Positions 11,262 to 62,050 of a stretch of DNA of 64,000 bases are shown here, piece after piece. The notes under the pieces were generated by a model that saw only the letters and a list, made by a program, of their open reading frames with translations, was not told the origin of the DNA and did not search any database. Within the stretch, counting starts at the first letter, position 1, and every line of letters starts with the position of its first letter. Source of the stretch: Blasia pusilla (lineage: Eukaryota); assembly GCA_050084515.1 (NCBI GenBank), contig CM114271.1, positions 31,000,001 through 31,064,000 on the forward strand. Direction: 5' to 3'. Made by a program: the position numbers and the translations under genes.

Positions 11262-11605
11262 ACTCGTATCCTACCATCTCCCCATACCCGCAAAATGTGA
11301 GTCCCCTCCCACCTGAACCTCTTGGCTCTTTGTAGGATCCGATCCCGCTCCCTAGCACTCACTGGACTCGCAATGACGCCAGTGCCCAAGAAATCCACAA
11401 CCTCCACGTCGTCATGGATATCACGACCACCTGTCGCCTCCTCACTAACCTCCGGATCCAAAGACTCATCATCCAACCCCACCACTGGAATCATCACCTG
11501 TGGCTGACCTGCCATATTCAACCAACAAAGATAGGTAGATGTATGCCAATCGGGCACCATCTCCTCATCACTCTCTCCGTGCCATCGAGCTCCTGTATCG
11601 TCTCT

Positions 11606-12978: not shown

Positions 12979-13359
12979 AAACCTATGAACTCGCCGTCGC
13001 TCTCCTCATATCAACTTGAGACCTATCATAGGCTCCCAAGTCTCCATCGTGACCTCACTTGGAGAGGACGCAACCTCCGACTTTGGTTGCTATGTAGCAA
13101 CCCTAGCCACCTCTGCAACAGCCACTCCACTCTGACCTCCTACACCATGCTCCACATCCGAAAAATGAACATGTGCTACTCTAGCCGCCTTCGCACTCTC
13201 TGTTTGAACGACGTCCCAGGAAGTCCATGGGTGCCTATCTCTCCTCGTCTCGTCCCCAGCCAATGGCTGTACAGACCCTGTAGGCAATGGTCCAACTCGT
13301 GGACGTGACAGCATGGATGACACTCGCATCCGTCTCTGCTCAGCCATACCTAGGCTGAC

Positions 13360-14310
13360 TATCCATGTGAGAGAGTTGAGGTCCATCGCCTGCCCCAACA
13401 TCTATCTCCGGGATGCCTCACTCATCCCTGGCACCGCCGTAGTACCGGTAGTAAACCCCACGGCGCGCTCGCGCTCATCTGCTATACGCTCCTCCAATGC
13501 TCCAGTCACCTCATCCCAAATCATGCCTGGCCCTCCCTGACAAAAGGCATGGGATGCTGGGAAGCTCACCAACGTAGGTAAGGCTGCCCTCAACTCCCCC
13601 ACCCTATTGGCCGTGGCCAACGGTGGTCTATCATCCCGTGTCACCACCTGAGATCGATGCCCTGAGCCCAAAATAGCATCCACTGTGAGATGTGGTGCTC
13701 TCTGGACTCCACTGTATGCTCGACTCAGTACCTCTCATGGTATCAGGTTCGTCCACCACAGTCGTGGACGATGGGCACGTGAACCAACTCTCGCTGCATC
13801 TAACAACATAGAAGGTCCCAAGCAAGACCTCACCTGATGTACACTCGTCATCACACGTGCATGAGTGTCTCCCAACAATGGCACGTTCTCCAAAATGTAC
13901 GCTGGAGAACATATCTTACTCTTCTGCAAGTGTCGTAATACTTGCAGCATCTCCCAAAACATCCCTGACCTCGGAAGCTGCAATCCAAATCCTCGCCCTG
14001 CTGATGAATGACCTTGACATGGCCATCCAGCAATCACCAAATGAATGGTGCCAACTCTATCCAGATCCTGCGCCCCCACCAAAGAGATGTCGGTGGGTAG
14101 CGTATGCTGATATCCACGTACTGCAGATACCGGCAACAACTCAGGATACCTTTGGACCAATCTCGCCACGTGACATAATGATACTTGCCGCACGGTCTCA
14201 TCTCTCTCCACATAAAGGTATTGATGCATTCGTATGCCCGCCTGCAATAGTGCAGCCAATCTGGTGCTTATCCCTCCGAAGAGATCTAACACCCAAACAC
14301 CCTCCTCTAG
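13360..14310 (-). pseudogene. DNMT3/DRM-like C5-cytosine DNA methyltransferase domain embedded in the Gypsy pol
   Basis: Motif I VLDLFGGIS, II YLYVE, IV IAGWPCQGHS (catalytic PC), VI YILENV, VIII RAHRPRLWWTNL, IX ERERAVGF, X MLGQAMD. Split by a frameshift and stops. Confidence 0.9.
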
Positions 14311-14445
14311 GCACTCCCATACAACAGGTGTGGTATCTAGTGGGGTCAACGTCTCCACTCCAAGAGCCCGATCGCCACGTGACTCTCGCTGCTCTGGAAT
14401 AAAAACATGACTCCACGCCTGCCTCACGAGGTCCTCGGCACTCCT

Positions 14446-21370: not shown

Positions 21371-23707
21371 ATGACCAAATCTAGAGAACTCCAACAGATC
21401 GTGAAGGAACATTGGGAAGAAGTACAGATGGAAGGTAGAACATCAAGCAGATGGCAGTGCAAGTATTGTTCCTATTCTATGAAAACATATGATAGCACGC
21501 GGATGGTAGAGCATTTTACACGAGAGAGACGAAAGACAAAGGATGAGAATCAGGATACCTTTCATGCCAAATTATGTGTGAAGGTCCCTCCCAACATGCA
21601 ATGGGATCCGAAACAAGGTACTAGTGGGAAATGGACAAAGAAGGCAAGCGAGACCTTTGAGTAAAGTGGAAGAGAAGACTCCATTACAAATAGTTTTGAA
21701 ATAAACAAGAAATAGTGTTTATGTTGTACAAAATGTTGATAGGGTTGCGAACATGCCATCGAGTGATAATCTCGAGGAATGCAGAGGAGTTGTTGGGCTC
21801 ATTCGAGGGACTAGTAGTTCTGGGAAGAAGAAATTCGATCTGAGGGATTCTTTCAACATCCAAGGAATAAAAGTTGCGAATGACATGTGGGCAAATTGTC
21901 TCTACGAATGTGGAATACCATTCCACGTAGTACGACAATATACTTTCAAACAAGCAGTGTTGGCAATAGCAAAGGTGAAGGGTTACTCAAGTCCTAGTTA
22001 CAATTCGTTGCGCACCACCCTACTTGAGAAACATATGGGGAAGATGAAGGATAAGGTGAATGGCATATTGGAACATTTACGTTTGGGAGCCACGATCATA
22101 ACCAATTCTTGGACCAATGTGAGGAGCGAGTCTTTAGTGAAAAAGTTGGTCTCGTGTCCACAAGGTGAGATCGTGATTGAGTCGGTAGAGACCAAAGGGG
22201 AATCCCAAACAGCAGAATGGTTGGTAGGTCACATAGAGAGGACTATCATGTGGATTGGTCCATAGAATGTGTTGCAACTTGTGACAGAAAATGCTAGCAA
22301 TGAGCGAGTAGCAGGGAAACTTATTGAAGCAAATTTCCCTCAAATTCTTTGGGATAGATGCGTCTTACATTCTCTTGATCTAGTCTGCGAAGAGTGGGAT
22401 AAATGGCCTTGGGTGGATAGGATTTTTGCACAAGCTCGTGAGATGGTAGTATTTATGAAGACTAGAACTTGGGTGATGGCCAAATTCATGGAAACCAATC
22501 CAATTAAGAGACGATTGTTGCTTCGTGCAAATACACGCTTTGCCATAAATTTTATCATTTCGGGACGCATCTTAGAATTTAGGGAGGCGTTCCATGCCAT
22601 GGTTGCCACCAATGCTTTTAGGGAGTATTTCAATGGCAGGGATGGGAGGAAAAGGGAGAAGGCATGAGAGATTGAGATTATTGTGGCCAATCACGATTTT
22701 TGGATGGAGGGTAAGGAGTTGTTTGCTACGGCTCAACCAACTATTATTCTGTTGAGAGAGTGTGATAAAGCAATGACCAGGCATGTTTATCACCGTATTT
22801 TTGAGATAATGGAAGAGACTCATTCTTTTCCTATAACTTCATGGCCCGGTGTGGGTGGAAGGCATCGCGGTTATTTTGTCACAATGTCTAGAGCAACAGA
22901 GATGGTCAATGTTATTTCTAGGCGATGGGCACTTATCCACAACAAGTTACATGCAATAGGCTACATTCTCGCCCCTTACAATCTTCTTGATAGTGTTCAA
23001 GACGTCACTTCAAATGCTCAGTGCATGAGAGATTTCAAATAATATCTGAAACTTTATGCAATGGGGCTGCATGGGCTCAATGTCACCGAGGCTAATTCTT
23101 ATGTGGCTACTTGCTTGCGAGAGTTGGGCAACATTGTGAACCATCAGGAAATATTTGTGGATGAATTTGGTAGGGAAGCTTTTGATTCACTTGGCCCCTC
23201 TGATTGGTGGAGCATCCATGGTCAAGGTGCACCAACATTGCATTATGTGGCTAAGTCCATATTAGCACAAGTGGTTTCATCTTCTTCAGTGGAGAGAAAT
23301 CGGAGTAGTTATGGTTTCATCCACAACAAGCACAAGAATAAACCAACGAGCGTGCCAGAGATTTGGTTTTCATCTACACAAACTCAAGGTTTGGAAACAA
23401 GGGTGTTTCTCCGAAAGCAAGACAAGCGCTCTTGTACGAGCAATACTTTTCAGAAAGGGATGGACAAGAACAAGCTAGAAGGATACTAGAAGATGACAGT
23501 GAATCTAGCTTGCATGCAAGAAATCGTGATGGTATTCAAAAAGATAACCTTGACTTTCAAGATGAGGACCTAGAGGAGGTGGATGTGATATATGGAATTC
23601 ATGGCATCGAAGGGAGAGAGAATACTCATATTAGCAACACTGAAAATTTTGATTCCGAGGGGCTTGGAAGAGATGAAGATGAAGTTAAAATGGAACATTG
23701 GATTTGA
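21371..23707 (+). pseudogene. hAT transposase (BED finger, DUF659-like region, C-terminal dimerisation domain), disrupted
   Basis: WQCKYC...RMVEHF; CGIPFHVV; TIITNSWT; LQLVTENAS; WDRCVLHSLDL; NTRFA; LHAIGYILAP; PSDWWSIHG...LAQVVSSSSVERN. Multiple stops and frameshifts. Confidence 0.92.
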
Positions 23708-32811: not shown

Positions 32812-34731
32812 TCAAGCGTCCTCAGGGCGGCTGTCGAAGTTCGTGACGAGGCGAACTCCGGCCCAACGGAGGGACAGTTCGATGTCCATGACATCTCGGA
32901 GATACGGTGCTCGATCTGAGATGTTCCCCACGGGCGGATCTTGGAAAGGGCAGTCCCACATGGTGGTCGAGGTCTGCTGGGCAACGTCCACCGTTCTCCC
33001 CCGCACGCAAGGCTCCAGCTTGGTCCCGTTGGGTGGATCTTCCATGAACTCGATGAAGTAGGGAGTGATCGCTCCGTAGGCCTGCGCCAGGCCTCCGAAG
33101 GTGGAGAGCGGGGTGATGAGGAGTTGGTCGGAGAAGCTGAGCAGAAAGATTTCCGAGAACGCTTGTACGTCTTCGTTTTCGTCGTGCAAGATCTGCTTCT
33201 GTTGGCTCGTCAGCTGCACCACGCTCACGTCCTCTCCCGTCACGGTGATGGGATTTTCTAGATACGGTTTGGAGATGTGATCGAACAAGTCACGGAACAA
33301 TGATGCGATGTAAACCATGATGACGGGAGATCGCTTGATGGAATCGAGCGACTGCTCCGGTGCGGTCTTCAGTTTCATCTGGGAGAACCGGGGAAGAATG
33401 CCCTCCTTCCACAGGCACTCGATGATGCGGGTGTCGATTAGCGTCTCCATGCGGTTCTTCATATCCACGCCGTCTCTGAACCGCAACTGAATTCCCACTC
33501 GGCGATCTGCCGCGCTGAGCAGGTAAGCGTGGTTGAGATGCTTCACTCGAGTCCAGACTGTCTCACTCGGCAGCGCGACGCTTCTTACCAGTCTCGTCAG
33601 TACCATCCGGTCTGGAAACAAGGCCTCCAGAGCCGGCATGAAGGTAGGAGTCGTGAAGATTCGGGGAACTGTGTTTATGTACCCGCTCCACAACACGAAA
33701 GGAACCTGGGCGTAGTACTCTTGCTCTGCCGTGCAGTAGAATCTGGAAAGTGGTTGATAATCATGGGTGAGTTCCGGGGAACCCACCACCGCGTAATCTT
33801 GAGACCTCCAGGGAAACGTCGCATTTTCATCCTTGTAGCTTTCGAACACGGATAGCGACTTCTGTGCTGCCAAATTCGAAGATGCATTACGACCGAACTG
33901 CTTAACATGCTCATCTATTTCACGGAAGAATTCCTCATCATCCTTCCACCCGGAAAGATCAAATCCGAACCAACCATGACCATTATAGCGAGGTAGGGGG
34001 AAATCAGAACGTATTAGCCAAGACGAACCCATGAAAGGCTCGCAGGTGTTATCCGGTAAAAGGCTTCGAGTGGCCAACAGCAAGATTCTCTGCGTGGAAA
34101 TTGCATATAGAAAGGCAGAAGCTAGAACCAAGACCTTGTTCCCCATTCCCGTGCCTTCGGCAGGATCTGTAATCAAGAACTTGCAACCAGGTATGTCTTG
34201 CCGCTCACGATAGTACCTAGTGATGTCCGGGATCTTCTTCGTGCAAGCCCGGTGGAGTTCGGAGTACTCCTCCATGACTTGGTCCCACGCTGGGTTCGCG
34301 GGAAGATGGTTGACGTGCTTTCTCTCATTAAACATGATTGGCAGCTCCAATCGGCTGGCACACGGATTGCGACTCTGCCATTCCTCTCTCTCCTTGTCAC
34401 TGATTTTCTCCATCACTCCCTCAGTCACCATTCTCCGAGTTTTCTGGAGCGCCTCAAGCAACAACGAACCGTCAGCTGCAGGCAGCTGGCTTCGTGAATG
34501 CTTCTCATGTTGATACCCTTCAGACCTTGGCTGTGAAGAATCTCTAGAAAAGCTTTCCGAAGAAGTAAACGGCACTGGAGCAGTTTCTGGAACAACACGA
34601 AATTTGATCATGCGACTTAAGGCGCGATATTGTGGCAATGCAAACCATTCGGATATCACAATGAGAAATATCGCCAGCAGAAAAATGCGATAGATAGCTG
34701 AGAGACGACATGACTCCGCTGGTTTATCCAT
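32812..34731 (-). CDS. FUT: GT37-family galactoside 2-alpha-L-fucosyltransferase (xyloglucan/AGP FUT-like), 639 aa, single exon
   Basis: Intact ORF; N-terminal type II TM segment; GMGNKVLVLASAFLYA, CEPFMGSSWL, VGIQLR, FSEIFLLSFSDQLLITPLSTFGGLAQAYG motifs. Confidence 0.93.
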   Translation of the reverse strand: MDKPAESCRLSAIYRIFLLAIFLIVISEWFALPQYRALSRMIKFRVVPETAPVPFTSSESFSRDSSQPRSEGYQHEKHSRSQLPAADGSLLLEALQKTRRMVTEGVMEKISDKEREEWQSRNPCASRLELPIMFNERKHVNHLPANPAWDQVMEEYSELHRACTKKIPDITRYYRERQDIPGCKFLITDPAEGTGMGNKVLVLASAFLYAISTQRILLLATRSLLPDNTCEPFMGSSWLIRSDFPLPRYNGHGWFGFDLSGWKDDEEFFREIDEHVKQFGRNASSNLAAQKSLSVFESYKDENATFPWRSQDYAVVGSPELTHDYQPLSRFYCTAEQEYYAQVPFVLWSGYINTVPRIFTTPTFMPALEALFPDRMVLTRLVRSVALPSETVWTRVKHLNHAYLLSAADRRVGIQLRFRDGVDMKNRMETLIDTRIIECLWKEGILPRFSQMKLKTAPEQSLDSIKRSPVIMVYIASLFRDLFDHISKPYLENPITVTGEDVSVVQLTSQQKQILHDENEDVQAFSEIFLLSFSDQLLITPLSTFGGLAQAYGAITPYFIEFMEDPPNGTKLEPCVRGRTVDVAQQTSTTMWDCPFQDPPVGNISDRAPYLRDVMDIELSLRWAGVRLVTNFDSRPEDA

Positions 34732-35102
34732 GAGAAAAGTGCACTCCTGCCTGACTGAATCCCTGGAAGTTTGGCCCGGGTCCCGTGCTGTGGAGACCGA
34801 TCCTACTTATATAGCTCTCTTTGCTTGAAACTCTAACAAGCTGCAACGAATTTTCCCCGGATTCCGTGAGTATACTCGAGTCAGCGCCGTTCTTGACGTT
34901 GGAGGTCAAGTTTACCAATTTTGGAACGAGAGCTGCACGCATAGGAATGGTAGTGCACTTACTTCTACGTCTCATGAACCCATCACGTCGGATCTTTCAA
35001 AGTCTCATGAATCTGTGACTGGGGATCGAATTCCCTTCCATTGCCCACAACGTCCCTACTCCCGCCATTCGCCATAACGTCGTGGACATTCACTCTGGAA
35101 TC

Positions 35103-47042: not shown

Positions 47043-47975
47043 TGCAACCTGTCTGAGTCCGACGGGTTGCAAATTTTGGGACTTAAATACATGGGTTGCG
47101 AAGCCACGGAGTACCATCTTCTGTAAGAGTCCGAGTGCAACTTACAACCCGTCAGAGTCCGTTGGGTTGGTACCCCCTGTCTGTCTGACCTGCGTGATTG
47201 GAGTCAAGATTTGCTAACATCGAGACACGAGATATCGCATGGATTTGCTACGGCAACCCGTTGGGGATTGCGACGGGTTCAAAAAGCACCTAACCTCGCT
47301 TTCCCTTTTGGATCTCGCGTCGATTTCTCTTGTCCAATGAACTGTGCAAACCAAAAGTGCAGATTTTCCGGATGGTGGGAAGTGTCTTACCCAGGGTAGA
47401 GCTTGTAACCCGTCGGAGGGTAACTGCTTGCCTTGGGACTATGCTTTGTCGCATTGTTACCCGAGGATGAGGAAAGCGTGCAATGCGGCGGTCTCCAAGG
47501 GGTTGCCCGGGTACCTTACCTTTTACCCCAATATGAGGGAAGTGTGCAACCCGTTGGTCTCCGACGGGTTGCGCGGGTACCTCGCCTTGTTACTCCAAGA
47601 TGGAGGAAGCGTGCAACCCGTCGACCTCCGACAGATTGCACGGATACCTCGCCTTACTACTCCAAGACCGGGGAAGTGTGCAACCCGTCGGTCTCCGACG
47701 GGTTGCACAAGTACCTCACGTTGTTACCCCAAGATCGGGGAAACATGCAACTCGTCGGTCTCCGACGGGTTGCTTGGGTACCTTGCCTTGTTACCCGAGG
47801 ACGAGGGATCTGTGCAAGTTGTCAATCTCCGACGGGTTGCTTGGGTACCTCGTCTTGTTACCCGAGGACGAGGGATCTGTGCAAGTCGTCGGTCTCCAAC
47901 AGGTTGCCTCGGTAACTCGCCCTGCATCCCCAAGACCACGGAAGTGTGCAACCAGTCGGAGACAGACGGGTTGCC
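47043..47975. repeat. Array of palindromes GCAACCCGTCGG-NNN-CCGACGGGTTGC; ~67-bp tandem unit over 47400-47975
   Basis: Copies at ~47479, 47544, 47612, 47678, 47746, 47814, 47880 and 47947, plus looser copies at 47043, 47146, 47252 and 47405. Confidence 0.9.
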
Positions 47976-49069
47976 CGGGTTCCCACGTACAAAGATCCAT
48001 AACGGCCTACACATTGCCGTTGGTACGACCCAACGGTCAGCTCAACGGCTCGAAAAGTGTAAAAGGCTGAGGTTTGATCATTTCCATTTTTCATTTCGCG
48101 ATTTCATGTGCTCTTCCTCGCAGCAGCTGACGTTACCTTTCCGCTGCCAAACTGGGTTGCATCACCACTTTGCTAAAAGATTACAACGATCCAGCAACCG
48201 ACGCTTCCGGGTTTGGATTTCGGCAAGCCCATCCGCTGGAGGGTCACGGCGCTTCATCACGAAGCGCTTCGAGGGATCTATCGTGCACAGGAGCATATTA
48301 GACAGTCGAGGAGGAAGAACTAACCCAACGTGCACCATGACAAGAAAGAAAACACAAGCAACCAAGGTAGTGAGCATCACTCCCAAGTCCATCAGGACTC
48401 CTGCGTCACCATCTCTAGCTCCTCGTTCGGCGAATGAGATAAGGCAACAATAAATAGAGGAGCGGGAAAGGGAAGCAGATATGCATAGGCAGGAGGTTCT
48501 AGCAAAACGTGTTTTGGAGGAGCTCACTAAGATAAACGCCAAGGTTGAGGCATCGAAGGCCTTCAAGAAAAGAGTCGCGGATGAGAACCGCGAGAAGAAG
48601 CATCTTGATGCCTCTGTGAGGAGAGCATAATAGGCAAAAGCTTGAAGAGAAAAAGCAATCGCCATTGAAGAAAGCCATGTCCGTCCAACAAAGAGTGTTG
48701 AGATGCGGGAAATGTCTCCGATGAGGTCTGGGAACACCATGAATATAAAATCGGCTGAGGAAACGGCCGAAGTTCAAGTGACGGACGATGAGGTCATGAG
48801 GACAGCAAGTATGGAGATGGTGGACATCTCTGAAGAAGCAAGAAAAGAGTCCTCATCGTCTTTGGGCCCTATGGAAGAAATCAACCTTTATGGGATCGAT
48901 GAGTTTCCCGTGGACTTGCCTAGTGCTGTCCTAGAGCAGTTGGCGGGCCTAGACACCGACCCAATCTTTGAGCGGGTAAGAAAAATTTGAGTTATGTGAA
49001 GGCTCATTATGCAATTCATTGGCAAAACACTGCATGTTATTGATGGAAAAACACCGCATTATGGAGATT

Positions 49070-49660
49070 TTAAGGCAAGGCGGAGCGTAAGGAGGCACCC
49101 TAGCCCTCAAAATTGCAAGCACAACCGAGTTACATAAACAAAGTTGTGAGAGATTTGAGTTTCTGCTCTTCTAGATTTCAGGATTTCAGATCTGAATCTT
49201 GCGGAGACCATATCTTTGAGGTGGAGTGTCATATGAAATTTAGATTTTGAGGCAACGCGGAGAGTGCAAAGGCGCCCTAGCCCTAAAAATTACAAGCACA
49301 AGAAATTTACATAGACGAAGTTGTGAAGGGTTTGAGTTTCTGCTCTTCTAGATTTTAGGATTTAAGATCTAAATCTTGCGGAGGCTATATCTTTGAGGTG
49401 AAGTGTCACATGAAGCTCAGATTTTGAGAAAACGTGGAATATAAAGAGATACCTTAGCTCTCCAAATTTCAAGAAAAATTGAGTTACACAAACGAAGTTG
49501 TGAGGGGTTTGAGTTTTTGCTCTTCTAGATTTGAGGATTTCAGATCTGAATTTTGCGGAGGCCATATCTTTGAGGTGGATTGTCATATGAAGCTGAGATT
49601 TTGAGAGAGCGTAAAATGTCAAGAGGTATCTTATTTCTACATATTTCAACTACAACCAAC
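49070..49660. repeat. 177-bp tandem repeat (~3.3 copies) in the LINE 5' UTR
   Basis: TTGTGA...TTTGAGTTT.TGCTCTTCTAGATTT at ~49144, 49321 and 49498. Confidence 0.9.
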
Positions 49661-49706
49661 TTCTAGAGCAGAAGTTGTGTAGTGTTGGAGATTTGATTAT
49701 ACTTGA

Positions 49707-50483
49707 TTGGAGGTCGTGCAATATCTGGGATATAGTGAAGTCGACTACATGATGACTACTCAAGACGAAATCTTGAATCCAATGCAAGTGTTCTTGCATG
49801 AACTGAAAGAGCTTCGACAAGAATTCAAGGTACAAACTTCTCAAGTAAACCTTGCACATCTTCAAATCCGAGAGTTAAAAGCAACGCAAGAGGTTTTGAA
49901 GAAAGTGTTGAAAGATAGTTCTAGTGTGATGCTGGATCTTTCCAAATTTGTTGCGGATGTTCAAGAGAAGGCATCATCATTAGCGACTACTCCCAATAGT
50001 TCAGGATTGCATGAGGTTTTTGAAACTTTAGAAGTGAAAATGAAATCTTATGTTGAAGCTACAAAGGTTGCTCATATCTCTTTGTGCCAAGGGCAAAAGA
50101 TAGAAAAGGAAAACCAATTTGCCCGTAGAAAGAATGTGAGAATCTCAGGTTTGCCAAAAACAGAGACCAAAAAGGTGAAGAGTGTTGTCACCAAGTTCTT
50201 GGTTGATACACTTCCTGTTCATAACCCGGACTTGGCTCAAGCTTTCCGTATTGGGAAAACGGGAACACAACCTAGTGCCATTCTAGTTAAGTTTGATGAT
50301 CAAACTCAACGTGATACTTCCATGGCTAACAAGGCCATTCTCAAAGGACAAAGGATATGGTTGGATCTTGATCTTACACCTCTACAAGTCAAAGCTAGGA
50401 GAAAGGAGCTTGCAAAGGTCAAAGAGGCTCAAGAAGCAGGTTTTATTGCTTATTTACGCGATGGTCGAGCAATTGTTACCTAG
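49707..50483 (+). CDS. LINE ORF1 (coiled coil plus RRM/CTD-like region)
   Basis: Open 258-aa frame; RRKNVRISGLP, AFRIGK, AILVKF and IWLDLDLTP are typical of LINE ORF1. Confidence 0.8.
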   Translation: MEVVQYLGYSEVDYMMTTQDEILNPMQVFLHELKELRQEFKVQTSQVNLAHLQIRELKATQEVLKKVLKDSSSVMLDLSKFVADVQEKASSLATTPNSSGLHEVFETLEVKMKSYVEATKVAHISLCQGQKIEKENQFARRKNVRISGLPKTETKKVKSVVTKFLVDTLPVHNPDLAQAFRIGKTGTQPSAILVKFDDQTQRDTSMANKAILKGQRIWLDLDLTPLQVKARRKELAKVKEAQEAGFIAYLRDGRAIVT

Positions 50484-50525
50484 AGAAAAACAGAGTTATC
50501 AACCTAGCAATCCAAGAAGCTGAGA

Positions 50526-53500
50526 GTGTTGATGTGGAATAAACGAAGCCTTTCAACAACAAAATATGTGAGTGCTCTACCAATTTGGGAGATGGCGGAC
50601 ATCATCAATATTGTGGAGACTTGGGAACATGAGAGCAATCCTATTGCAGAGATGCAAGGGTTTACTTTGGTGGGATCGACATGGAACCAAAGAAGGCAAC
50701 GGGCAGGAAGGGGTTATGGCGGTGTTGCTACTTTCATCAGGTCTCAATTTCTACCTCTAATACATCTAGAAGATCAAGATATCGGGGGCCAATATCATTG
50801 GCTACGTCTTGGTTTGGTTGGGGGATCTTATTGTTATTTGGCAGTTTGTTATTTTGCACCACTGTCCATGCCTATCTACTCAACATGCACTTACAATCGA
50901 AGTCAACCGTTCCATCAATTTATTGGGGATGTTCTCAAATATCAAAACAAAGGTGAAGTCTTTCTAGTTGGGGATTTCAATGCTCGCACACATTCTGCTC
51001 AATTTATCCAATTCAGTGATTCCTTGACTTCTCCTCTTCTCGAAGAACATGAGGATGGTTTGTGGTCTAGAATCTCTTCAGATCTTTCTACAAATCCTTT
51101 GAGAAAGCATTTTTTAAACTTTCGGAGCCACTTGTAATTTGAAAGTTCTTAATGGAACCTCTCATTTTCCTAACTCTCACTCCAATACGTGTTTCTCCTC
51201 TACCGGCGCTAGCACCATCGATTATTTTCTCTCCTTCCCCGCTAATAGCTCTCTTATCTCTACATTTGATATTCTAGAACCTCAGCCTGAATCAGATCAC
51301 GCACCTATTTTGTTTACTCTCTCACTATCAAAGGCGATTCCTCTTTTAACATGTCAATTTCTTTTAGCTTCTCCCAAGTTTCGCTTAGATCCTGGTAAAA
51401 AAGATCTTTATACGCTACATTTACAAGAACTCTTAACTCGCATTGTATGGAGCCTAGATCCACACACGGCAAGTTTGCAACTAATCGAATTGCTCAAAAA
51501 TACTGCATCTAAGTTCTTTTCGCGGCACAGGGACAAAAGTGCTAGGAGGCTACCTTGTAATGGGTGGTTTGACTTTGAATGCAAGCAAGCAAGGGTAAGA
51601 TCAGTAGATAAATCTTTGGATATCCAAAGTCGGATTATTATGACGAGTCTTTACAAATACTTGGTGAAATTTAAGAAACGAGCTTTCTTGTGGCGGAAGC
51701 AAGAGTCCTTGATAAGGGAGCTACATGACAACCCCAAATCATTTTGGAGACAGTTAGTAGTACGCTCTTCAAAACCTACTCTTAATCCCAAGTCTTTGAT
51801 ATCTTTTGCCGAAAAGTTTTATTTTTTCCCCGATGCTACATCTATGCCACGTTGTGAAGGAATACCTGGCTTATTCTCTGAAGTAGAGATGATGACTTAA
51901 CTAAGAAGATTAGCAACTGGTAAATGTGAAGATTTGGATGGTCTATCTATTGAACTTTTCAAGTGGGGAGGAGATTCTATTAGACCGATCCTCACCAAAG
52001 TATTGGGTGATGCTGCTATCTATGGTTTTCCTTCTACTTGGTCACTAAGGGGATTGTTCCTATTCATAAATCAGGAAGGAAGGACTTGGTGACAAACTAT
52101 CGCACTATCATGGTGGGTAGAGTTTTTGCTAAGTTGTTTGGGAAATTGGTGGAGTCAAAGTTGAGCGCATGGACAGAGTCTTTCCAAAAGAGAGCACGGA
52201 TCCAAGCTGGTTTTCGCCCAACATACAACACCATATCTTGGCCTTGCGTATTTTATGGGAGAAATCTAAGGGCAATGGGAAAGCTTTGTTTTGCGCTTTC
52301 ATCAATTTCAAGAAAGCTTTTGATACTATACCTCGTACGCTCTTATGGGATAGGCTACAAGCCATTGGAGTACCACCAAATCTCCTAGCAGCCATGGCCA
52401 CGTTATACCACTCCGTTCAGGCCAAGATCAAAGGTTCATAAACTCAAGAGATCTTGAGTATCATCGAAGTCATTCAAGGTTGCCCTCTCTCCTCTACTCT
52501 ATTTGGAGTTCTCATAGATGATATCGAAAAGTGGTTGGAGGAATGTGATAGTGAAGGTGTCAAGCTTGGGGACTTTGTCATCAAAGCTCCATTGTATGCA
52601 AATGATATCATATTACTAGCATGTGATGGCATTAGTTTACAAAAACACCTCAACACTTTGGTAAGGTTTTGTACCCAGAATCAGATGGAGGTTAATATGG
52701 AGAAGTCTAAAATCATTATAGTGGGTACAAGATCCAAGTTCTCATTCTTTTACAAAGGTCTACAATTAGAACAAGTGAAGAGTTACAAATATATAGGCAT
52801 CGATTTCTCTCATGACTATAGTTGAGCTTCTACTCTCTTTTGCACTCTACGTGCAAAAGAGAGTAGAAGCTGGTAACAAAGCTCTATATTCATTTTTAAA
52901 CCGGTGTAGAAGAGCTCATCTTGTGTCTTGGGGTCTTAGGAAATTCTTATTTAGGAGCTTAGTGTTGTCGGTGGTCTTATATGGGACCCAAGTTTGGGGC
53001 CCTAGTTGTAAGAAGACAGGTTGGGAGCGCATGGAGAGGGTGCAAAAGATCTTTCTACAAGAAGAATTGGGTGTAAGAAACCAAACTCCATATGCTATTC
53101 TTCTTGCGGAAACAAGTTGTCTTCCTCTAGAGCCTGAAGCTCTTTACTTGACCATCACTTACATCGCAAGGGTGAGATCTCTTGATGTTTCTTGCCTCCC
53201 TCATCAAGTTTTGCGAGCCACACGTTCCATAGGGTGGATGGCGGATGTGGTGACTTGGTCTTCAAAGTGGAATGTGGCCGAACGCGATTGGGACTTGAAA
53301 CCGATGGTGCTCCGCGAGCATCTACAGAAGCAATTTCTCAACATTATTTGGAGCAGCCCAAGCACCAAAATGGAGTTTTATCAACTTCATGTTAATCCTA
53401 TGCTTGTATATTGTGAACAAGGATACCTACTTGCGGGGATCTCCACGTTCTTAAGTCATATTATCGCACGACATAGAACTGGGTCTCATAGGCTAGGAAT

Positions 53501-53741
53501 TGAAGAAGGACGATGGTTTAATATTGATAGAAGTGAACGAATTTGTAAGTTATGTGAGGGAGAAAATATTGAGGATGAAGAGCATGTGTTTGTTACATGT
53601 CCAAGGTATGAAGAGATTAGACTAGGTCATAAAATACATGTGGAGAATTTCTATTCTTTACTACAGCTAGTGCCTTATGATTTAGGTTGTTATATTAGGG
53701 ATGTCATTATTCATCGCTCAAGTGCTCTAGGCAGTAGCTAG
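50526..53741 (+). pseudogene. LINE ORF2: AP endonuclease, reverse transcriptase, C-terminal CCHC; disrupted
   Basis: IVETW, GYGGVA, LVGDFNAR, STIDY, ESDHAPI; NYRTI, FINFKKAFDTI, QGCPLS, LYANDI, YKYIGI; RICKLC...EDEEHVFVTC. Confidence 0.93.
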
Positions 53742-54356
53742 GAGAAGGTCTTTAGGATCTTTTTCCGGGTCAGTGAATGAATAGCTTGTAATATATTTTT
53801 CAGCCTTTTGACCCTTTGGGTCCCACGGGCTTGATCTATTTACTATTTACCATTTATCATTTGAGAAGATGGCACTGATGGAGGGTCAAAACGCCCCGAG
53901 AATTCCACTCTGTCAATTGCGGACAATGGAGTACATCCGCGAAATTCCAATCGGAGGAGGACATTGCAAAGCTCAAACAGTCGGCAGCGACTACATCCTA
54001 CGTCGATAGCTTCCCTCCGTTCTATGTTCAGCCTTACGATGAACAAGGAGCCCAAGCGCTGGTGACGGAAGAGGACTTGGAGGCACTGGATACTTTCTGG
54101 AGGATGAGAGATCAGGAGTTCATAAGAGCGATTGAAGGAACCAAATTTAGCTGGATGCAAAACCTTTACTTCTTCATCTGGGATGGAAACCACACGTACA
54201 TGACATGAACGTAGTTTGCAGAGGAGCGCCCAAATTCATTGGAGACGCATTTTTGCGTGAAGGTAGTCGTGCTCTATCCATTTCCTCATCACATGGCAAC
54301 GGTGGAAATGGCTATGCATGCGATAAATACGTAAGTTTCCTCTTCCTTAAGTTTGA

Positions 54357-55110
54357 TTGCTTCAATCCGTCGGAGTCAAACGGGTTGAATAATTGGAAAG
54401 CTTAAAGATTTGAGTCTCTTGTGACCATCCTGTTTGTGGTCAATGTCATAGTCAAGCAAACCGTCAGAGTCCGACAGGTTGCTTGGTAGCCAAGCACAAC
54501 ATCGACAGGTGGAAAAATGAATGCATGATTTATTTGTTCTGCAATCCTTCGGACTCCAACGAGTTGCACAATGAGAGGTAACAAATCATTGGACATCTAA
54601 AAGCAACTCGTCGGAGTCCGACGAGTTGCTTGACTGTCCGGTATTTTTTGGATACTTTTGGCCGAAAGAAACTCGTTGGACTCCGACGGGTTGCATTTCC
54701 CCCCCTTCCCCGCCCCCCCAGGTTAGGTGGTCGGAGTATGAGAGCTTGCTTTAGCGTCCAATTGTAGCTTCACAAGGCATTACGCAACCCGTCGGACTTT
54801 GACGAGTTGATATGTGCAGTTTTTTCCCGGAAACCTATCCCCGAATAGAAGTCATTCTACAATCCCTTGGAGACCGACGGATTGTAACCAAGGACTAAAT
54901 CGGTTGGATGAAGGGACATAAAAAAAAAGAGTGCAACCCGTTGGACTTCGATGGGTTGCAATTCTCTCTAAAATTTTTCAGAGTGTTGCAATAAGTGTAA
55001 CACAAAGATAAGTGTTGTGACCCGTTGGACTCCGACGCGTTGCAACATTTATCCGTGTGTTTACCATTTCGACCCCCATGGGTTGACAGAATTGCGACCG
55101 GTCGGAGTCC
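54357..55110. repeat. Dispersed palindrome copies filling intron 1 of the ParB-MTase pseudogene
   Basis: CAAC(C/T)CGTCGGA.TCCGAC(G/A)GGTTG-type copies at ~54362, 54457, 54540, 54602, 54668, 54784, 54859, 54932 and 55017. Confidence 0.85.
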
Positions 55111-57247
55111 GGCGAGATCAGGAACCCGATAGCTTGCAGTGTTCTTACTTTGTGTTTGGATGTGCAGGATTGTATCCGAGGGGAATGTCACCCACCACTG
55201 GATCCAGGATTGCGACAGGGTGAAGAAGGTGCTTACGACGCACCCGAAAAAGTACAAGGGATTCCTGGGCGACGGTTTGGTGAATGAGATGCTCACGAAG
55301 GGAGCTCAAATAAAAAAAGAAGACTTGGGCAAATACCTCCATTTCCCAAGATGCAGCCGTCACAATCCTATGTTGGTCCAAGATCCAGGCTGCCAAGAAG
55401 AGTGCTTCGTTGGAACTGGAGCGAAGGGAGAACGTGTATGCGTCGGAACGTGCAAAGTTTATTCAGGCTGCCATATCTACAGCTACAAAGTACACTACAA
55501 GCAAGATGCAGCGATACATTACGATTCTCAACCCCGAACTTGGCCCAGAGTTTTACAAGAAGCTCAATGCGATAATCAAGCGCCTGCGGAAGAGATACGA
55601 AGATACACAAGGTTGGATTGGCGAGAAAGTGTCTCTGGACCGCGTGCACAAATTTGCGCTATCTAGGATATCCGAGTTTCGGAGAATCTGACTAATAAAA
55701 ATCAGTTTCGAGGGCACTGAGGCCCAAAATCGGGCGGCACACCATCCTCCGGGAGTTTCAGATCCAGTGATCGCCCATTGGCTACGGGAATGGTCATTCT
55801 CGGACGCGTTACACCTTCTCAAGAAGTCGATGCTTCTGGGTCTTCAAGCAGAGCTAAAGAAGATTGAGCCAGTTCCAGAGGAAGCAAACCTAGAGGCTGC
55901 AAAAGATTTTGAACTATGGCTTGATGACATCAGAGATAAGCCCATAAAAAACCTAGGATTCATGATGATATTCAAGAATCACATCTTCCCTCAGGCAGAC
56001 TTGGATGAGGAAATAGATGCCAAAAATGGGATTTTGCAAAGAAGAAGCGGGATCTTCAGGACTTGGCTGCCAAGTCATCTCGACAAAGAGCTGCCTAGCA
56101 GATGGTGTATAGGTACCTCATCAATTGTAAGAATGCAAGAACCTAGCAAAAATTACCAGCAACCTACAGATTGTGGGCTTCTCCGCCTGATGGAGAGGCA
56201 TTTTCCATGTATGACATGGAGATGGGACAAGGCATGTCCAACTGGGAGATTAACAATTGTCCAATCTGGTTGGACTTCAACAACCCATAGGACATTACAG
56301 ACAAAAATTTATGCGTGGTGTATGATGTAGTGGTCGTAGGTAGGGACGACATTCTGAACTTCATGCAACCTGACGATTTTTTCGAAGGAGATGCGGGGGA
56401 GCAAGCCCTCGAGACAATAGAGTTGGTGGGCAAGGTCGTCACTGCCAAAGACAAATCCACAGCGGGTTTGAGGAAGTCGAGGGGATCGAGGAATTCGAAG
56501 GCGGAGTCTTCCAGAAAAGAGGTTGAGTCCTCAAGGCGAAAGGCGGAATCATCCTGGCGAGCGGGGAGAGAGGGCCGGACTAGATCCTCGTCCAAGAAAA
56601 CTCTTGTGGAGTCTGAGGTAACAGAGACTCTCACAAGCCGACAGCAGACTCAGGAGAAGCGGAAGCGTAAGGCGCCTGGTTTATCCGAGGAAGGAGATAA
56701 GGATGTGGAATACACTCCATCATCCTTGGGCAGGCATGGGGAAACAACCACCAGGACAAATGTCCTTGTTCAATTGACTCATCTTGTCGATGAGCTGCAA
56801 AGTTTCAATTCTCAGGAGTCGACATCTGCCATCGAAAAGTTGACCGTGCAGGGACAAAAACTCCTTCGGAACGAGTATGCCCATTGGATGGTGCATGGGG
56901 TTGTTGAGGAGGTGGCGGTGAACCTCCTCATTGCGGATTTTCCTTTTGGATTTTGCTTGTGGGACAAAAATCCATCTGACACTGTCCCAGACTAGAATGT
57001 CCCGCTTTCGTACGACCAGATCGCGTGGTTGTTCTCTTTTACCGACGCGTATCTGAGTGAAAAGGGTTGTTTCTTGGTCCTCACTGGAGGGAGAAAAGAT
57101 GAGCTCTTCAACCTTCAGTGCGTGAAGAGGTTGCTGAAGTGGAGGACGGCGCAATTATGGGTAATTAAAAATGAGTGCCCACTCCAATCGGCGACGAGTC
57201 CAGTCCAGGTAAGTTCTCTTATTCAACGAATTTAGTTTAACAAAAAT

Positions 57248-57710
57248 TCAACCCATCGGATCCCTATAGCTTGTATCTGCGGTGTTGCAATCCGTTTGAA
57301 AGCGACGGGTTGCAAATTCACCAACAAGTCTCCATAGACTGCAACCCGTCGGAACCCGACGGGTTGCAAGTAGCACTGCTTTTCAGTGTATTTCTCTGGT
57401 AATGCAACCCGTCTGAAAGCGGCGGGTTTCTCTTATATTAGGAACTCAACTCTAAACAATTGTATTTAGTTGTAAGCCAACCATCGCACTCGAAACGGTG
57501 GAGCTTCTGTCCAGCAAGATGAGCAACCTGTTGGCTTTCGACGGGTTGCTCATGGCCAAAATGGGGTCTTAGAGTTGCAAGACAACTCGTCGGACTCCGA
57601 CAGGTTGTTGTTCTGTCAAGCCTATTGGCCCATTTCGGACGAGTTGGTAATTACTATGGACTAGTATGACGGGTTGAAAAGCAACCTGTCGGATCCCGAC
57701 AATCTGCACA
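57248..57710. repeat. Dispersed palindrome copies filling intron 2 of the ParB-MTase pseudogene
   Basis: For example TGCAACCCGTCGGAACCCGACGGGTTGCA at ~57340; others at ~57249, 57286, 57403, 57522, 57582 and 57680. Confidence 0.85.
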
Positions 57711-58684
57711 TTGTGTCAGTTTATGGAGAGTATACCAGCGGTCTACTAGCTTTTTCTTTTTGCTGACATTAATTTTTACATGCTTGTTACAGATAGACCA
57801 CTCATTTATCTATTTCTTTGTAAGTCCCAAGCATAACTTCCAGGTGTTCCAGTGGATCCATGCTCCGATGGGTACAGCTAAGATAGTCTCTACAATTCCC
57901 AGGGAATTTACATGCAAGACGGGACCCCCTTACTTGGAGGGAGGGAAAAGTCACCTGCCTTGATGCAAACGCTCATCGAGCTTGGTTCGAGGTCGGGTGA
58001 CTTGGTCTTTGACTTAGTGGGCCTATTAGAGGCGCTTGGCATAGTGGCAGGAACATTCTCTGCCTTGAGGGAAGGCCGGAACTTTTTGACCTTTGCAAAG
58101 AGGCAAAGGCGGATTATGAGAGGCTAGTGGGAGTATACAACTCTCCTTCAAAGCCAACAGCTCCGGTTCCAGAACCACCATTGATAGTGACACCATCGTC
58201 ACTTCCTACTATTCCAAAAATCGGGAGGGCAAAACCGAGAGTAATTTTGGAAGAGCTATCGGACGATGACGAGTGAGTTCAAAGATTCATTGGACCCATC
58301 TTGACGGAAGCGTTTTGGAGTAGGGATTTATTGCTTTCCAAGGACGGAGCAGATATTGATACTGGATGGATGTCACCTTGTAGAGCATACAAGATTTACT
58401 ACCGAGGAAGGCGTTGGGACTCAAATCATTTTACATGGGACCGTTTTGGTGTACCTAGGGGGGGCCAAGGCTCTCAAATTCCCCAATATTTTCGATCCCC
58501 CTCTACAATTGGCCAGTGGAGCCACTTGTATCCCAAGACATTCTTTTATACAAGAACCTAGGAAAGCTAGGAGTAAATTTGTAGATGACGAGGCTGAAGA
58601 AATCATAGACTAGATCAAATGTACATTTCCGAGCTTTCCTCGGATGTAATAAAGGATACGAAGTTTTTGAACCATGATGGTTTT

Positions 58685-61600
58685 TGCAAAATCCTAAATC
58701 TGACATTTCAAACTCAGATTTCAACACTCCCTTTATTTCCTCTATTTTCTTATTGTGGTCTCCTGTGATGATAAGATCATCCACATACAGGACTATCAAA
58801 ATATACATCCCATCTTCGCAAAACACATACAAATTTTCTTCCGACGGACTCTTGATGAGACCCTTCTCTCGAAAAATGTATCTATTTGTTGATACTATAA
58901 CCTTGGGGCTTGCTTCAACCCATACAATGCTCGATGAAGTAAACATATTTTCTCTTCTAATCTCAGTGTCTCAAAACTTGGTGGTTGAGATACATACACC
59001 TCCTCCTTGAGACTCCCGTTCACATCGTATTGGTATACATGCCAACAACTTGTTCCAGCAACCGCTAGAACAATTCAACTGGTTGTCATCCTTGAAGTAG
59101 GAGCAAAAGTCTCATAGTAGTCAAAACCTTTGATTTGTGAGCATCCTTGTGCAACCAACCTCGCTTTGAATTTATCCAATGTACCGTATGACTTGTACTT
59201 GGTCTTGTACACCCACTTGGTGCGTATTCTCTTCCTGTCCTTTGGCTTCTCAACCAAAGTCAAAGTTTCATTTCTCTGAATAGCGTCCATCTCCATCTGC
59301 ATGGCCTCTCTCCATTGAGGATGAGCAAGGGCCTCATCCAAGCATGATGGCTCTTCCACCTTCAAGACCTATGTCATCAAGGCCATGTTGACGAGATGTG
59401 CGGAAGCTCTATTCTGCTCTTCTAGTCTCTTGGATCTCCTTGGATGTGTAACAACTTCATCAGTTGTTGGTGGATCCTTACCATCCAAGAGCTCCTTTAT
59501 CCACTTAGGGTATGACGACCGTAGTGGAAGAGCACGCTGCTCTCTGTAATCATCACCAAATTCTTCTTCTTGAGGATCTGGTGTAAACATTGGTGGTGTG
59601 CTCTGGTGGGTTATCTCTTTGTTTGATGATAATGTGGACGGACCACTGATATCCGCCACTTGACGAGGCTGTTCCTAGAACACCATATCACGACTCACAA
59701 GCATCATCTTTGCCTCAGGACACCATAGGCGATAAGCTTAGGATTCATCACGCTATCCCATAAAGGTGCACTTCTTGCTCTTAGACTCCAGCTTGGTCAT
59801 GGATGCTTCAGGAATATGTACAAAGCACTCACTACCAAAAGTCCTAAAATGTTGGACTGATGGTACCTTACCTGAGTATGATTGATGAGGAGTCATGCCT
59901 TACATTGACTTGGTAGCACTTCTATTTAGAATATAAACGACAGTATTAACAGCTTCAGCCCAAAATCCTTTTGTCAAATCCTTCTTTCATCATACATCTT
60001 GCCATCCCCACCACTTTACAGTTTTCACGCTCAACAACTTCATTTTTTTGTGGTATATGTGTTGTGGTTAACTGTCGCTTGATTCCATGCTCCCCCAAAT
60101 ATTTGTTGAATTCTGTTGATAAGAATTCTCCTCCTCGATTGGTGCAAAGCTTTTGAACCTTCTTTCCTGTCTCATTCTCAACCAGCTTGTGCCATACTTT
60201 AAATTTTCCAAAAGCACTTACCTTATCACGAAGGAAATATACCCACATCTTCCTACTATAATCGTCGATAACTAAAAAGAAGTAGAAAGAACCACCTAAT
60301 GCCATTGTTCTCATTTTACCACAAAGGTCAGCATGAATGAGCACTAGAGGAGCCTTTGCTCTCTTGCTGGACCCTTGTGGAAATGGTTGTCGGTGTTGCT
60401 TGCCCATCATACAAGCTTCACATGTATCCGACACTCTAGAAATTGTTGGTAAATCAACAACCATGCTAGATTTCTCCATCTGACTTACTAAGGGAAAGCT
60501 TAGGTGACCAAATCTTTCCTGCCACAACTTACTACTACTAAGATCTGTACCTACACTTGTCGTGAAAGCATACAACTCGTAGATATTTCCACGTTGTATA
60601 TCTTCATCCACTACTTTCCCATTGGCATCCTCAATGACTGCTCCAGTTTTCTTGAAACAAACTTCTAGGTCACGATCACATAATACTATTAAGCACCCAT
60701 GCATCTTCACTCTTTGACTTAGTGGAATGTTCTGCCTATGTGCAAAACTCTTCGATTGCTACCCAAGCATCTACTTCATGTTCTCCTAGTTCTACAGAAT
60801 TTCCAGACTCCTTCTTAGGTCTTAAACAACCGTTCTTCTCATCCTGACTCCTCTTTCTACAATCTTTGATAAGAGGACCTAGCTTACCACAATAAAAGCA
60901 TTTGAAGGCTTTCCTTGGAAATTTCTTCTTGACATTTGAATTGTAATCCTGATTTCTACCTCTGTGTACGTTGGTAGTAAATGTTGCATCACTTCTCTCT
61001 CTTGCTTTGAAGCGCATTTCCTCTTCTACCAACATTGCACCAAATTGTTCAAAAGTAAGCAGGGTGGATTTTACTTGAGTATTCAATGCCATGACCAAAC
61101 TATCATACCTTGGAGGCAAAATCCTTATGCACCGACGTGCCAAATCTTTGCTAGACTTTGAAATTCCTACGAATGCCATCTGATCTTGAAGATTCTTGTT
61201 CCTTGTCAAAAATTGCTCCGCACTTTCTCCTTTTGAAAATTTCTCAGACGTGAGCTGATTCTCTAGATTCTGAATCCAACTCTCATTCCTCGTTTCACAC
61301 TGATTCTTCAGAATATTCCACGCCTCAGCAGCAGCGGTTATATGTTGAATGAGAGTCATGACAAAATCAGTTACATTCCTGACAATCGCATATAGAGCAT
61401 TAGCATTTATGTGTTTCCATGCCAGCAATACAACAAGATCGATATCCCCAGATGAAGATAAACATGCAAAATTCAAAGTAGCTTGTGGATTCGAATTGAT
61501 CCTTGTGGCCATCTCCCAGATCTCAAATGATTCGAGGACAGTTCTCATTTTGAACTTCCACAATGTATAGTTAGACCCATCTAACTTCCCTTCACCCAGC

Positions 61601-62050
61601 GGAGGAGGGCGAGCACGAACTGACGAAGAAGTAGCAATCTCTCAAGATTTTGTGCAAACACACTAGATCGCCAGATACAAAATACTGGAAAATCTACTGC
61701 TCTGATACCATGTGAGAAAACAGAAAGTGAAAAAATCACATAAATCTTTACAAAAATTAGAGATACAAAGTGACCTAGTCCGTCCGTACGCTCACACAAG
61801 AGCTTCGATGAAACCTGAACATGGAGATAACTCGATATACGAGAATCCGCTACCGCTGCGGCTCCCGACTATTTCACTACTCGGGAAACTAGGGTTTTTA
61901 CCTATTTTTCTTCATTTCTATTAATAGAAAATTTCTATTAGTAGGGTTAGATAATCCTAGTAACGCAACTCCTGAAACCACTTACGTCATATTCCTATGA
62001 CTCCTTTGACGTCTAAGTCGAAACCATCAATGTAGGCTTCTCCTCATACA
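58685..62050 (-). mobile_element. Ty1/Copia retrotransposon, 3'-truncated and internally deleted (5' LTR ~61711-62050, gag, integrase, partial RT)
   Basis: PBS TGGTATCAGAGC; gag WKFKMRTVL and CFYCGKLG knuckle; integrase LIHADLCG, VIDDYSR, NRGGEF, VVEREN; RT KWVYKTK, KARLVAQG, LYVDDLII, EFEMSDLG. Confidence 0.92.
61699..61710 (-). other. Primer-binding site (initiator Met tRNA) of the Copia element
   Basis: TGGTATCAGAGC immediately follows ...CTCACA (LTR end) on the minus strand. Confidence 0.9.

Follow-up and report, generated by a model that had tools for sequence, protein, structure and literature searches.

The subject of this study is a decayed multi-exon gene on the plus strand of a 64,000-nucleotide stretch of Blasia pusilla DNA (assembly GCA_050084515.1, contig CM114271.1, positions 31,000,001 to 31,064,000), which we call the window. 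Three-frame translation of the window places the gene at 48337-58276, with at least four exons encoding a protein of about 1200 residues. It also recovers, at its place, every peptide quoted in a preliminary description of the locus, which had reported an intron-containing fusion of a ParB/Srx domain with a beta-class amino-methyltransferase, running from 48337 to 58613 and interrupted by a long interspersed nuclear element (LINE). The features of the locus are given below, with exon-intron boundaries marked by a slash.

47044-47991, no strand: upstream array of the palindrome GTGCAACCCGTCGG-NNN-CCGACGGGTTGCAC, with 6 of the 15 palindrome sites in the window; eight tandem 67-bp units at 47449-47980
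48337-48990, plus strand: remnant of a charged N-terminal open reading frame (ORF), frame 1, with four internal stops and a possible splice donor (AGG/GTAAGA) at 48976
49065-49713, no strand: tandem repeat with a 177-bp unit, about three copies that are 75-82% alike, between the N-terminal ORF and the first LINE ORF
49707-53866, plus strand: inserted LINE with apurinic/apyrimidinic endonuclease (APE) and reverse transcriptase
53869-54330, plus strand: exon with a weakly ParB-N-like segment (IPLCQL...REI.SEEDIAKLKQS...FFIWDGNHT), broken by a 1-nt frameshift at 53948 and by stop codons at 54206 and 54212
54331-55167, plus strand: predicted intron 1, GT-AG, frame kept, with five scored palindrome sites and further degenerate ones
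55168-57208, plus strand: large exon, with frameshifts near 55312 and 56021 and five in-frame stops
57209-57792, plus strand: predicted intron 2, GT-AG, phase 0, with four scored palindrome sites and further degenerate ones
57793-58276, plus strand: last exon, with frameshifts near 57940 and 58015 and the stop codon at 58274-58276
58286-58613, no strand: probably outside the gene, other repeat sequence leading into a minus-strand copia fragment (RVT_2 match at about 58671-58880)

The copy in the window is non-functional. Seven in-frame stops and five frameshifts lie between 53869 and 58276, and the gene as a whole carries at least 11 in-frame stops, five frameshifts and one LINE insertion. The inserted LINE is confirmed by an Exo_endo_phos endonuclease domain at 50508-51137 (E 1.3e-7) and an RVT_1 reverse transcriptase domain at 52133-52825 (E 1.1e-11). 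Upstream of it, the charged N-terminal ORF presumably belongs to the same gene, given its position and strand, and the 177-bp tandem repeat that follows could be either the 5' region of the LINE or a satellite within the first intron. At the downstream end, most genomic copies diverge beyond 58285 (510 loose-end reads), and we therefore place the end of the gene at the stop codon at 58274-58276; read joints 58285>58584 and 58285>58603 lie at the 3' break of the element. The extent given in the preliminary description thus holds for 48337-58276, while 58277-58613 is probably foreign sequence outside the gene. No second copy of the element was found within the 64-kb window, and Rfam gave no match there.

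The exons differ in what they encode. The peptides IPLCQLRTMEYIREI and SEEDIAKLKQS...FFIWDGNHT both lie within 53869-54208. The large exon holds a long helical middle region conserved in a protein of the liverwort Riccia sorocarpa, a K/R/E/S-rich linker and the N-terminal half of a methyltransferase-like domain, the latter with a candidate motif IV (VNLLIADFPFG, 56918-56950), YLSEKGCFLV downstream of it in the same frame, LSEKGCFLVLTGG and LWVIKNECP. In the last exon, a motif VIII-like stretch (IDHSFIYFFVSPK) is followed by motifs X-I-II-III (EKSPALMQTLIELGSRSGDLVFDL ... GRNILCLEGRPELFDLCKEAKADYERL), an acidic tail and the stop codon; EKSPALMQTLIELGSRSGDLVFD and IRGAWHSGRNILCLE lie within 57945-58069.

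The proposal that these fragments derive from one long protein is supported by a distant relative. A phmmer search with 56291-57232 found a single match among 1.84 billion representative proteins, the Riccia sorocarpa protein KAL3687003.1 (E 8.6e-5; hereafter P0002), which has 488 residues and carries an ordinary gene annotation on a 49-Mb contig. When P0002 was compared with the window by tblastn, three collinear segments over 55500-57214 matched with E values of 1e-10 to 2e-9 and identities of 28-33%, and therefore the middle region and the N-terminal half of the last domain represent a conserved protein and not noise. Further word-based homologue searches with 55692-56330 and with P0002 gave nothing besides P0002, which is weak evidence, and no relative was found in metagenome contigs or viral contigs.

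The two gaps between the exons are plausibly GT-AG spliceosomal introns, as judged from splice consensus, frame continuity, joints in DNA reads and the end of the Riccia gene model. Intron 1 starts with GTAAGT and ends with a polypyrimidine tract and CAG, splits a codon (AC/G) and links two stretches of frame 2, the sole long open frame on each side. Intron 2 reads CAG/GTAAGT ... TTACAG/. Genomic reads from other copies match the window up to GTAAGT (joint 54336) and again from 55150, in the acceptor tract, with a different interior, and the P0002 gene model stops five residues beyond where the intron-2 donor lies, as if the model had run into an intron there. Thus, the canonical ends and preserved frame of the introns proposed earlier stand, but RNA gave no junction across 54331-55167 or 57209-57792 among the 15 joints listed.

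Two RNA runs placed 424 and 461 reads on the gene, mostly at 57850-58650 and with the first mate on the minus strand, which, for a stranded library of the usual kind, means RNA of plus sense. In each run, 29-36 reads align over no more than the 40 bases at 53907-53947 and carry other sequence to either side (agreement 0.98-1.0); the left continuation encodes the same peptide, LMEGQKAPRI. A diverged paralogue that differs after 53947 is therefore transcribed; the difference is possibly an extra intron.

The gene belongs to a high-copy repeat. We aligned about 1% of a whole-genome run, whose species label is the same as that of the window, to 53750-58650 at 80% likeness or more. On these 4.9 kb fell 32227 of 12434590 genomic reads (0.26%), and 23081 of the 32227 were less than 90% alike. 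Read depth was about 800-1200 across the exons and 90-230 over parts of the introns (54406-54569, 54734-55061 and 57686-57849). The copy number is thus roughly of the order of a thousand or more, in diverged copies, as is typical of a transposon family, and the mobile or repeated element suspected in the preliminary description is borne out to this extent. The same reads separate damage in this copy from variation in the family. Of 1226 reads over the TGA at 54206-54208, 1205 have TGG (54208 A>G), and 361 of 492 lack the extra base at 53948, so that at least one stop and at least one frameshift are private to the window copy. Near 55312, 55319 and 56021, some of the reads carry indels, which coincide with frame changes in the window. 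At 53867, 698 loose-end reads mark the point upstream of which other genomic copies diverge from the window, and the window does not contain a 20-nt motif that the read consensus shows upstream of this point; hence the sequence that precedes the ParB-like exon in other copies of the element is missing here. The element has been disrupted by the LINE and other repeats, and what the window preserves is a single dead gene copy from an old interspersed plant repeat of very high abundance.

Our preferred reading, which we consider probable on the analyses presented here, is that the gene of this repeat combines a weakly ParB-like domain with a degenerate beta-class methyltransferase domain, and that the protein of intact copies recognises the element's own palindromes. 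The locus would not be transposon cargo at all if it were instead a pseudogene from a non-mobile family of host genes, or a piece of a large DNA virus that had been endogenised. Searches of 34.8-48.3 kb and 61.5-64 kb revealed no transposase domain, nor were terminal repeats or a target duplication found in the window, and these absences tell against a transposon. The annotation of the Riccia relative as an ordinary gene points the same way, and large algal DNA viruses encode many PF01555 enzymes (PMC7248222). Such an origin nevertheless seems very improbable to us. The share of genomic reads on 4.9 kb, most of them 80-90% alike, corresponds to about a thousand or more diverged copies, the viral contigs hold no relative, and the predicted spliceosomal introns are common to the copies. 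Cargo of a transposon-like repeat remains the reading that we develop below.

The evidence for the methyltransferase-like domain comes mainly from profile-profile comparison. The comparison sets comprised 31 bacterial ParB_N + N6_N4_Mtase fusion ORFs and seven stand-alone PF01555 enzymes, together 38 domains (one fusion and all seven stand-alone enzymes were checked with Pfam), and the query was the read-through of the window gene with X at each of its 14 breaks. In hhalign, the C-terminal region aligned with the 38 domains over 61 columns covering motifs X, I, II and III (P 3.2e-5, probability 72.8%). None of 100 shuffled queries reached its score (41.7 for the real sequence vs 14.6 +/- 2.9 for the shuffles, maximum 24.7). 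Two further alignments are individually weak: VNLLIADFPFG with vDlIftDPPYN of motif IV (P 0.099), and AYLSEKGCFLVLTGG...LWVIKNECP...IDHSFIYFFVSPK with motifs V-VIII over 68 columns (P 0.11), the second of which spans the intron-2 junction. The three blocks follow the permuted order of motifs (IV, V-VIII, X-I-III), in that template columns 99-109, 151-219 and 265-328 are collinear and correspond to VNLLIADFPFG, AYLSEKG...FFVSPKHN and EKSPALMQ...YERL. Matches in curated libraries were below threshold and all on EKSPALMQTLIELGSRSGDLVFDL: PF01555 on 57882-58127 (13.5 bits, E 0.069), with phrog_67 (E 0.03) and phrog_3008 (E 0.31), both named 'DNA methyltransferase', on the same residues. The PF01555 search gave no match on the N-terminal half of the domain and none on P0002. 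On these comparisons we accept that the C-terminal domain is homologous to the beta-class (circularly permuted, PF01555-type) N6/N4 amino-methyltransferases, as the preliminary description had proposed, and membership of this family would suggest a prokaryotic origin of the gene. An NCBIfam adenine phosphoribosyltransferase match (E 9.6e-4) covers residues that are out of frame and was dismissed as a chance match, and MAFFT alignments, which placed fragments of the window wrongly on P0002, were excluded.

Several observations weigh against a working methyltransferase, and some against the assignment itself. No curated model reaches threshold, the 13.5 bits of PF01555 comparing with a cut-off of 26.7. 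Motif IV is DFPF (56936-56947), without the first Pro of the canonical (D/N/S)-P-P-(Y/F/W), and the open Riccia frame reads DLPT, in which the aromatic residue is lost too. Neither frame at 58000-58045 has the GxG/FxGxG loop of motif I; the site carries a frameshift, with DLVGLLEAL in frame 0 and LSGPIRGA in frame 2, and hhalign opens a three-residue gap opposite GSGS. Fold prediction gave no support either: an AlphaFold model of P0002 from a three-row alignment had a predicted local distance difference test (pLDDT) score of 35.7 and the Atlas's own model of P0002 a pLDDT of 0.33. Because both motif IV and motif I are degenerate, methyltransferase catalysis is doubtful. The degenerate motifs themselves had been recognised before; the suggestion made alongside them, that the protein potentially writes N6-methyladenine (6mA) or N4-methylcytosine (4mC), is therefore doubtful.

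One could go further and regard the resemblances to both methyltransferases and ParB as convergent motif matches in an unrelated, uncharacterised protein carried by a repeat. The sub-threshold matches in curated libraries span only 23-25 residues, and searches of solved-structure sequences with P0002, P0001, 57882-58127 and a two-row profile gave no methyltransferase and no ParB. An Atlas search with P0002 did return TRM11, UPF0020 and PF01555 clusters at 0.85, a lead only, since shuffled proteins often reach this range. Convergence is hard to reconcile, however, with the 61-column alignment, which no shuffle came near, with two further motif blocks in the correct order, or with three libraries that place methyltransferase models on the same residues, and we think it scarcely probable. 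We therefore retain a methyltransferase-derived C-terminal domain as part of the preferred reading.

The case for ParB is weaker, and the firm ParB/Srx assignment of the preliminary description does not hold at that strength. A profile of the 31 fusions aligns IPLCQLRTMEYIREI.SEEDIAKLKQSAATTSYVD with three elements of the ParB N domain, its first strand, the Arg and the helix that comes next. In hmmsearch, this profile gave only two matches, which were collinear, one in the N-terminal ParB segment and one at motif X-I; among 3000 shuffled sequences, none had both matches, and 47 reached the full score. In hhalign, the ParB segment (35 residues) aligned with the ParB-methyltransferase fusions at P 0.026, a value that 2 of 90 shuffles reached. 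Against a ParB identity, the same 35 residues gave P 0.31 with 31 chromosomal ParB proteins and 0.09 with a mixed profile, and Pfam (E up to 1), PHROGs and NCBIfam gave no ParB match for 53812-54330. An Atlas search with the ParB-like piece likewise had no usable match. The gap from PPFYV to FFIWDGNHT is about 45 residues, far above that of ParB, so that a 45-residue insertion is needed. The box itself reads DGNHT, with the conserved Arg of G-x-x-R or DGxHR replaced by Thr, and no variant of the Thr codon is present among the 40 read differences listed. In addition, the criterion of the collinear test was set after the real matches were known, although the places agree with those named beforehand in the preliminary description, and the charged N-terminal exon is tied to the rest of the gene by position alone. 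The ParB identity of the N-terminal segment is thus weak, if still a reasonable reading.

The distribution of a palindrome offers a separate line of evidence on what the protein might bind. The pattern GCAACCCGTCGG-N4-CGACGGGTTGC, allowing up to three mismatches, has 27 matches at 15 sites in 64 kb, compared with 0 expected. All 15 sites fall within 47044-47974, 54456-54959 or 57287-57549, that is, upstream of the start codon and in both introns. Upstream, 350-900 bp from the start codon, the tandem 67-bp units each contain a 31-bp (14+3+14) palindrome. The interiors of the introns are arrays of the same palindrome, a point absent from the preliminary description. The palindromes fold into hairpins at about -20 kcal/mol (-20.5 in the upstream array), with z-scores of -5.5 to -8. 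Joints in genomic reads show that other copies have the palindrome directly after the intron-1 donor and before the acceptor tract, and its presence at both ends of intron 1 is therefore a trait of the family and not only of the window copy. The exclusive co-location of palindromes and gene suggests that they are putative cognate binding sites. The palindrome units also occur in RNA, in the reads at 54570-54733 (X15, depth 9, first mate on the minus strand), and 7 and 13 RNA reads contain joints that go back 36 bases (54600-54636). Palindrome units may thus be transcribed as hairpins somewhere in the genome.

These data also bear on an explanation in which the accessory protein has a real methyltransferase-derived domain, its N-terminal domain is not ParB, and the palindromes are an unrelated hairpin mini-repeat, similar to miniature inverted-repeat transposable elements (MITEs) or introners, and not binding sites. 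The ParB signal, with P 0.026 at best, 0.31 against chromosomal ParB and no library match, leaves room for it; the palindromes are confined to non-coding stretches, the interiors of the introns vary between copies, and RNA reads include hairpin units that have their own joints (54635>54600, X14 and X15). A mini-repeat would not be expected to have 15 of 15 sites at one gene, however, when the window has other introns, intergenic DNA and transposons. The palindromes at both ends of intron 1 in many copies were already in the ancestor of the family, and in red-algal elements a ParB-like accessory gene is likewise associated with inverted-repeat arrays, as discussed below. We regard this explanation as unlikely on balance, while giving it real weight, and we continue with recognition of the palindromes by the protein as the preferred reading.

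To date, published accessory proteins in which a ParB-like binder is linked to a DNA-modifying domain come from brown, red and green algal transposons. One of the closest by description is in the 21.5-kb Sola1-1_Ec32 element of Ectocarpus, in which PMC12477816 reports a 1104-aa accessory protein with ParB-like and N4-cytosine/N6-adenine (N4C/N6A) methyltransferase domains. Like the protein studied here, it is a single polypeptide of about 1100-1200 residues with an N-terminal ParB-like part and an N4C/N6A-type methyltransferase domain, and it is carried by a repeated mobile element; it is proposed there to bind and modify its own element. In contrast, our gene is in a land plant, with degenerate catalytic motifs and palindrome-filled introns, and the likeness is one of description. 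In red algae, the Bostrychia study (bioRxiv 10.1101/2025.02.11.637652) describes Plavaka elements with PAG2 (PF01555 and SET domains) and PAG3 (a ParB-like domain and a 2-oxoglutarate (2OG) oxygenase), the latter adjoined by tandem inverted-repeat arrays. There, too, PF01555-type and ParB-like domains are transposon cargo, inverted-repeat arrays lie beside the ParB-like gene, and the copies are highly amplified, mostly degenerate and weakly transcribed. The two domains of Plavaka are in two genes with other partners, whereas here they would be in one gene and the palindromes are also intronic.

Fusions in bacteria and phages show the same domain order, and their profiles give collinear, weak-to-moderate matches at both ends of the plant protein. 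An example is a 444-aa ORF (locus L023) with PF02195 at E 6.9e-10 and PF01555 at E 2e-19. The bacterial fusions have about 420-470 residues and intact DPPY and FGGSGS motifs, whereas the plant protein, whose gene has introns, is without canonical motifs, starts with a charged N terminus and separates the two domains by about 700 more residues. In Patescibacteria, 37 of 301 sampled genomes contain ParB_N + N6_N4_Mtase fusion ORFs of 424-475 residues (loci L021-L055), with matches at E up to 1e-10 and sometimes two per genome. Among eukaryotes, chlorophytes and chytrids have ParB-helix-turn-helix (ParB-HTH) proteins with Dam-type methyltransferases, as described by Iyer, Zhang and Aravind (2016, PMC4738411). 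These likewise fuse a ParB-type DNA-binding module to an adenine-methyltransferase domain of prokaryotic or phage origin but, by the same account, belong to the M.EcoKI/M.TaqI-like group 2 (Dam clade) and not to the PF01555 beta class. The Marchantia 4mC methyltransferases MpDN4MT1a/b provide a precedent for a bacterial-type amino-methyltransferase in a non-seed land plant. According to bioRxiv 10.1101/2021.02.12.428880, these host genes are single-locus, keep the TSPPY motif intact and are expressed specifically in sperm, unlike the high-copy repeat with DFPF or DLPT described here, and the text of that preprint does not mention ParB (0 occurrences). Our literature search found no land-plant report of a transposon accessory protein that is ParB-like and carries a DNA-modifying domain. 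In size, domain order, repeat-borne state and inverted-repeat arrays, the gene looks like the algal accessory proteins, and it may be a land-plant member of their kind.

These comparisons suggest how intact copies might have used the protein. As proposed for giant algal DNA transposons, it would recognise the element's own palindrome arrays through its N-terminal domain, and this recognition would bring the methyltransferase-like domain to the DNA of the element. There, the domain may mark the element with 6mA or 4mC; given DFPF and DLPT, a non-catalytic DNA-binding module may be likelier. Either way, the effect would be on the silencing or maintenance of the element. In its most specific form, this model describes a self-recognition module of a land-plant transposon, in which a ParB-derived domain binds cognate palindromes and a fused methyltransferase-derived domain, catalytic in master copies or acting as a clamp, marks or shields the element. 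We consider this version speculative and unlikely to hold as a whole. If it were true, a prokaryotic partition or modification system would have been repurposed for the epigenetic self-control of transposons in plants with very large genomes. The family to which the gene appears to belong accounts for about a quarter of one percent of this large genome and has a distant relative in Riccia sorocarpa. Should intact copies be active, they would allow tests of whether plant transposons write or read 6mA or 4mC on themselves and of the role of the palindrome arrays. If the domain is dead, it would represent a methyltransferase fold reused as a DNA-binding module.

The remainder of the window is land-plant DNA, with a xyloglucan fucosyltransferase gene on the minus strand at 32812-34806 (E 9.6e-46) and, besides the LINE, a hAT remnant and copia- and gypsy-type elements. 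The gypsy-type retroelement lies on the minus strand at 8981-14445, in a GC-rich, C-skewed block at about 8-18 kb. Its frames encode, from 5' to 3', a C-5 cytosine DNA methylase (13738-14445, E 9.4e-9), RVT_1 (12276-12557), RT_RNaseH (11609-12400, E 1.5e-29), integrase zinc-binding and core domains (9794-10293) and a PHD finger (8981-9745, E 1.2e-10). This retroelement may thus carry its own 5-methylcytosine (5mC) methyltransferase, an arrangement reported from dinoflagellates and a charophyte. The hAT transposase remnant, on the plus strand at 21705-23489, has DUF659 in two adjoining frames (E 2.3e-13 and 1.2e-11) and a hAT dimerisation domain (E 5e-7). A copia-type fragment on the minus strand at 58506-61641 contains gag, pre-integrase, integrase core and RVT_2 domains, and its RVT_2 match ends near 58671, close to the point at which the element of the methyltransferase-like gene breaks off (58285).

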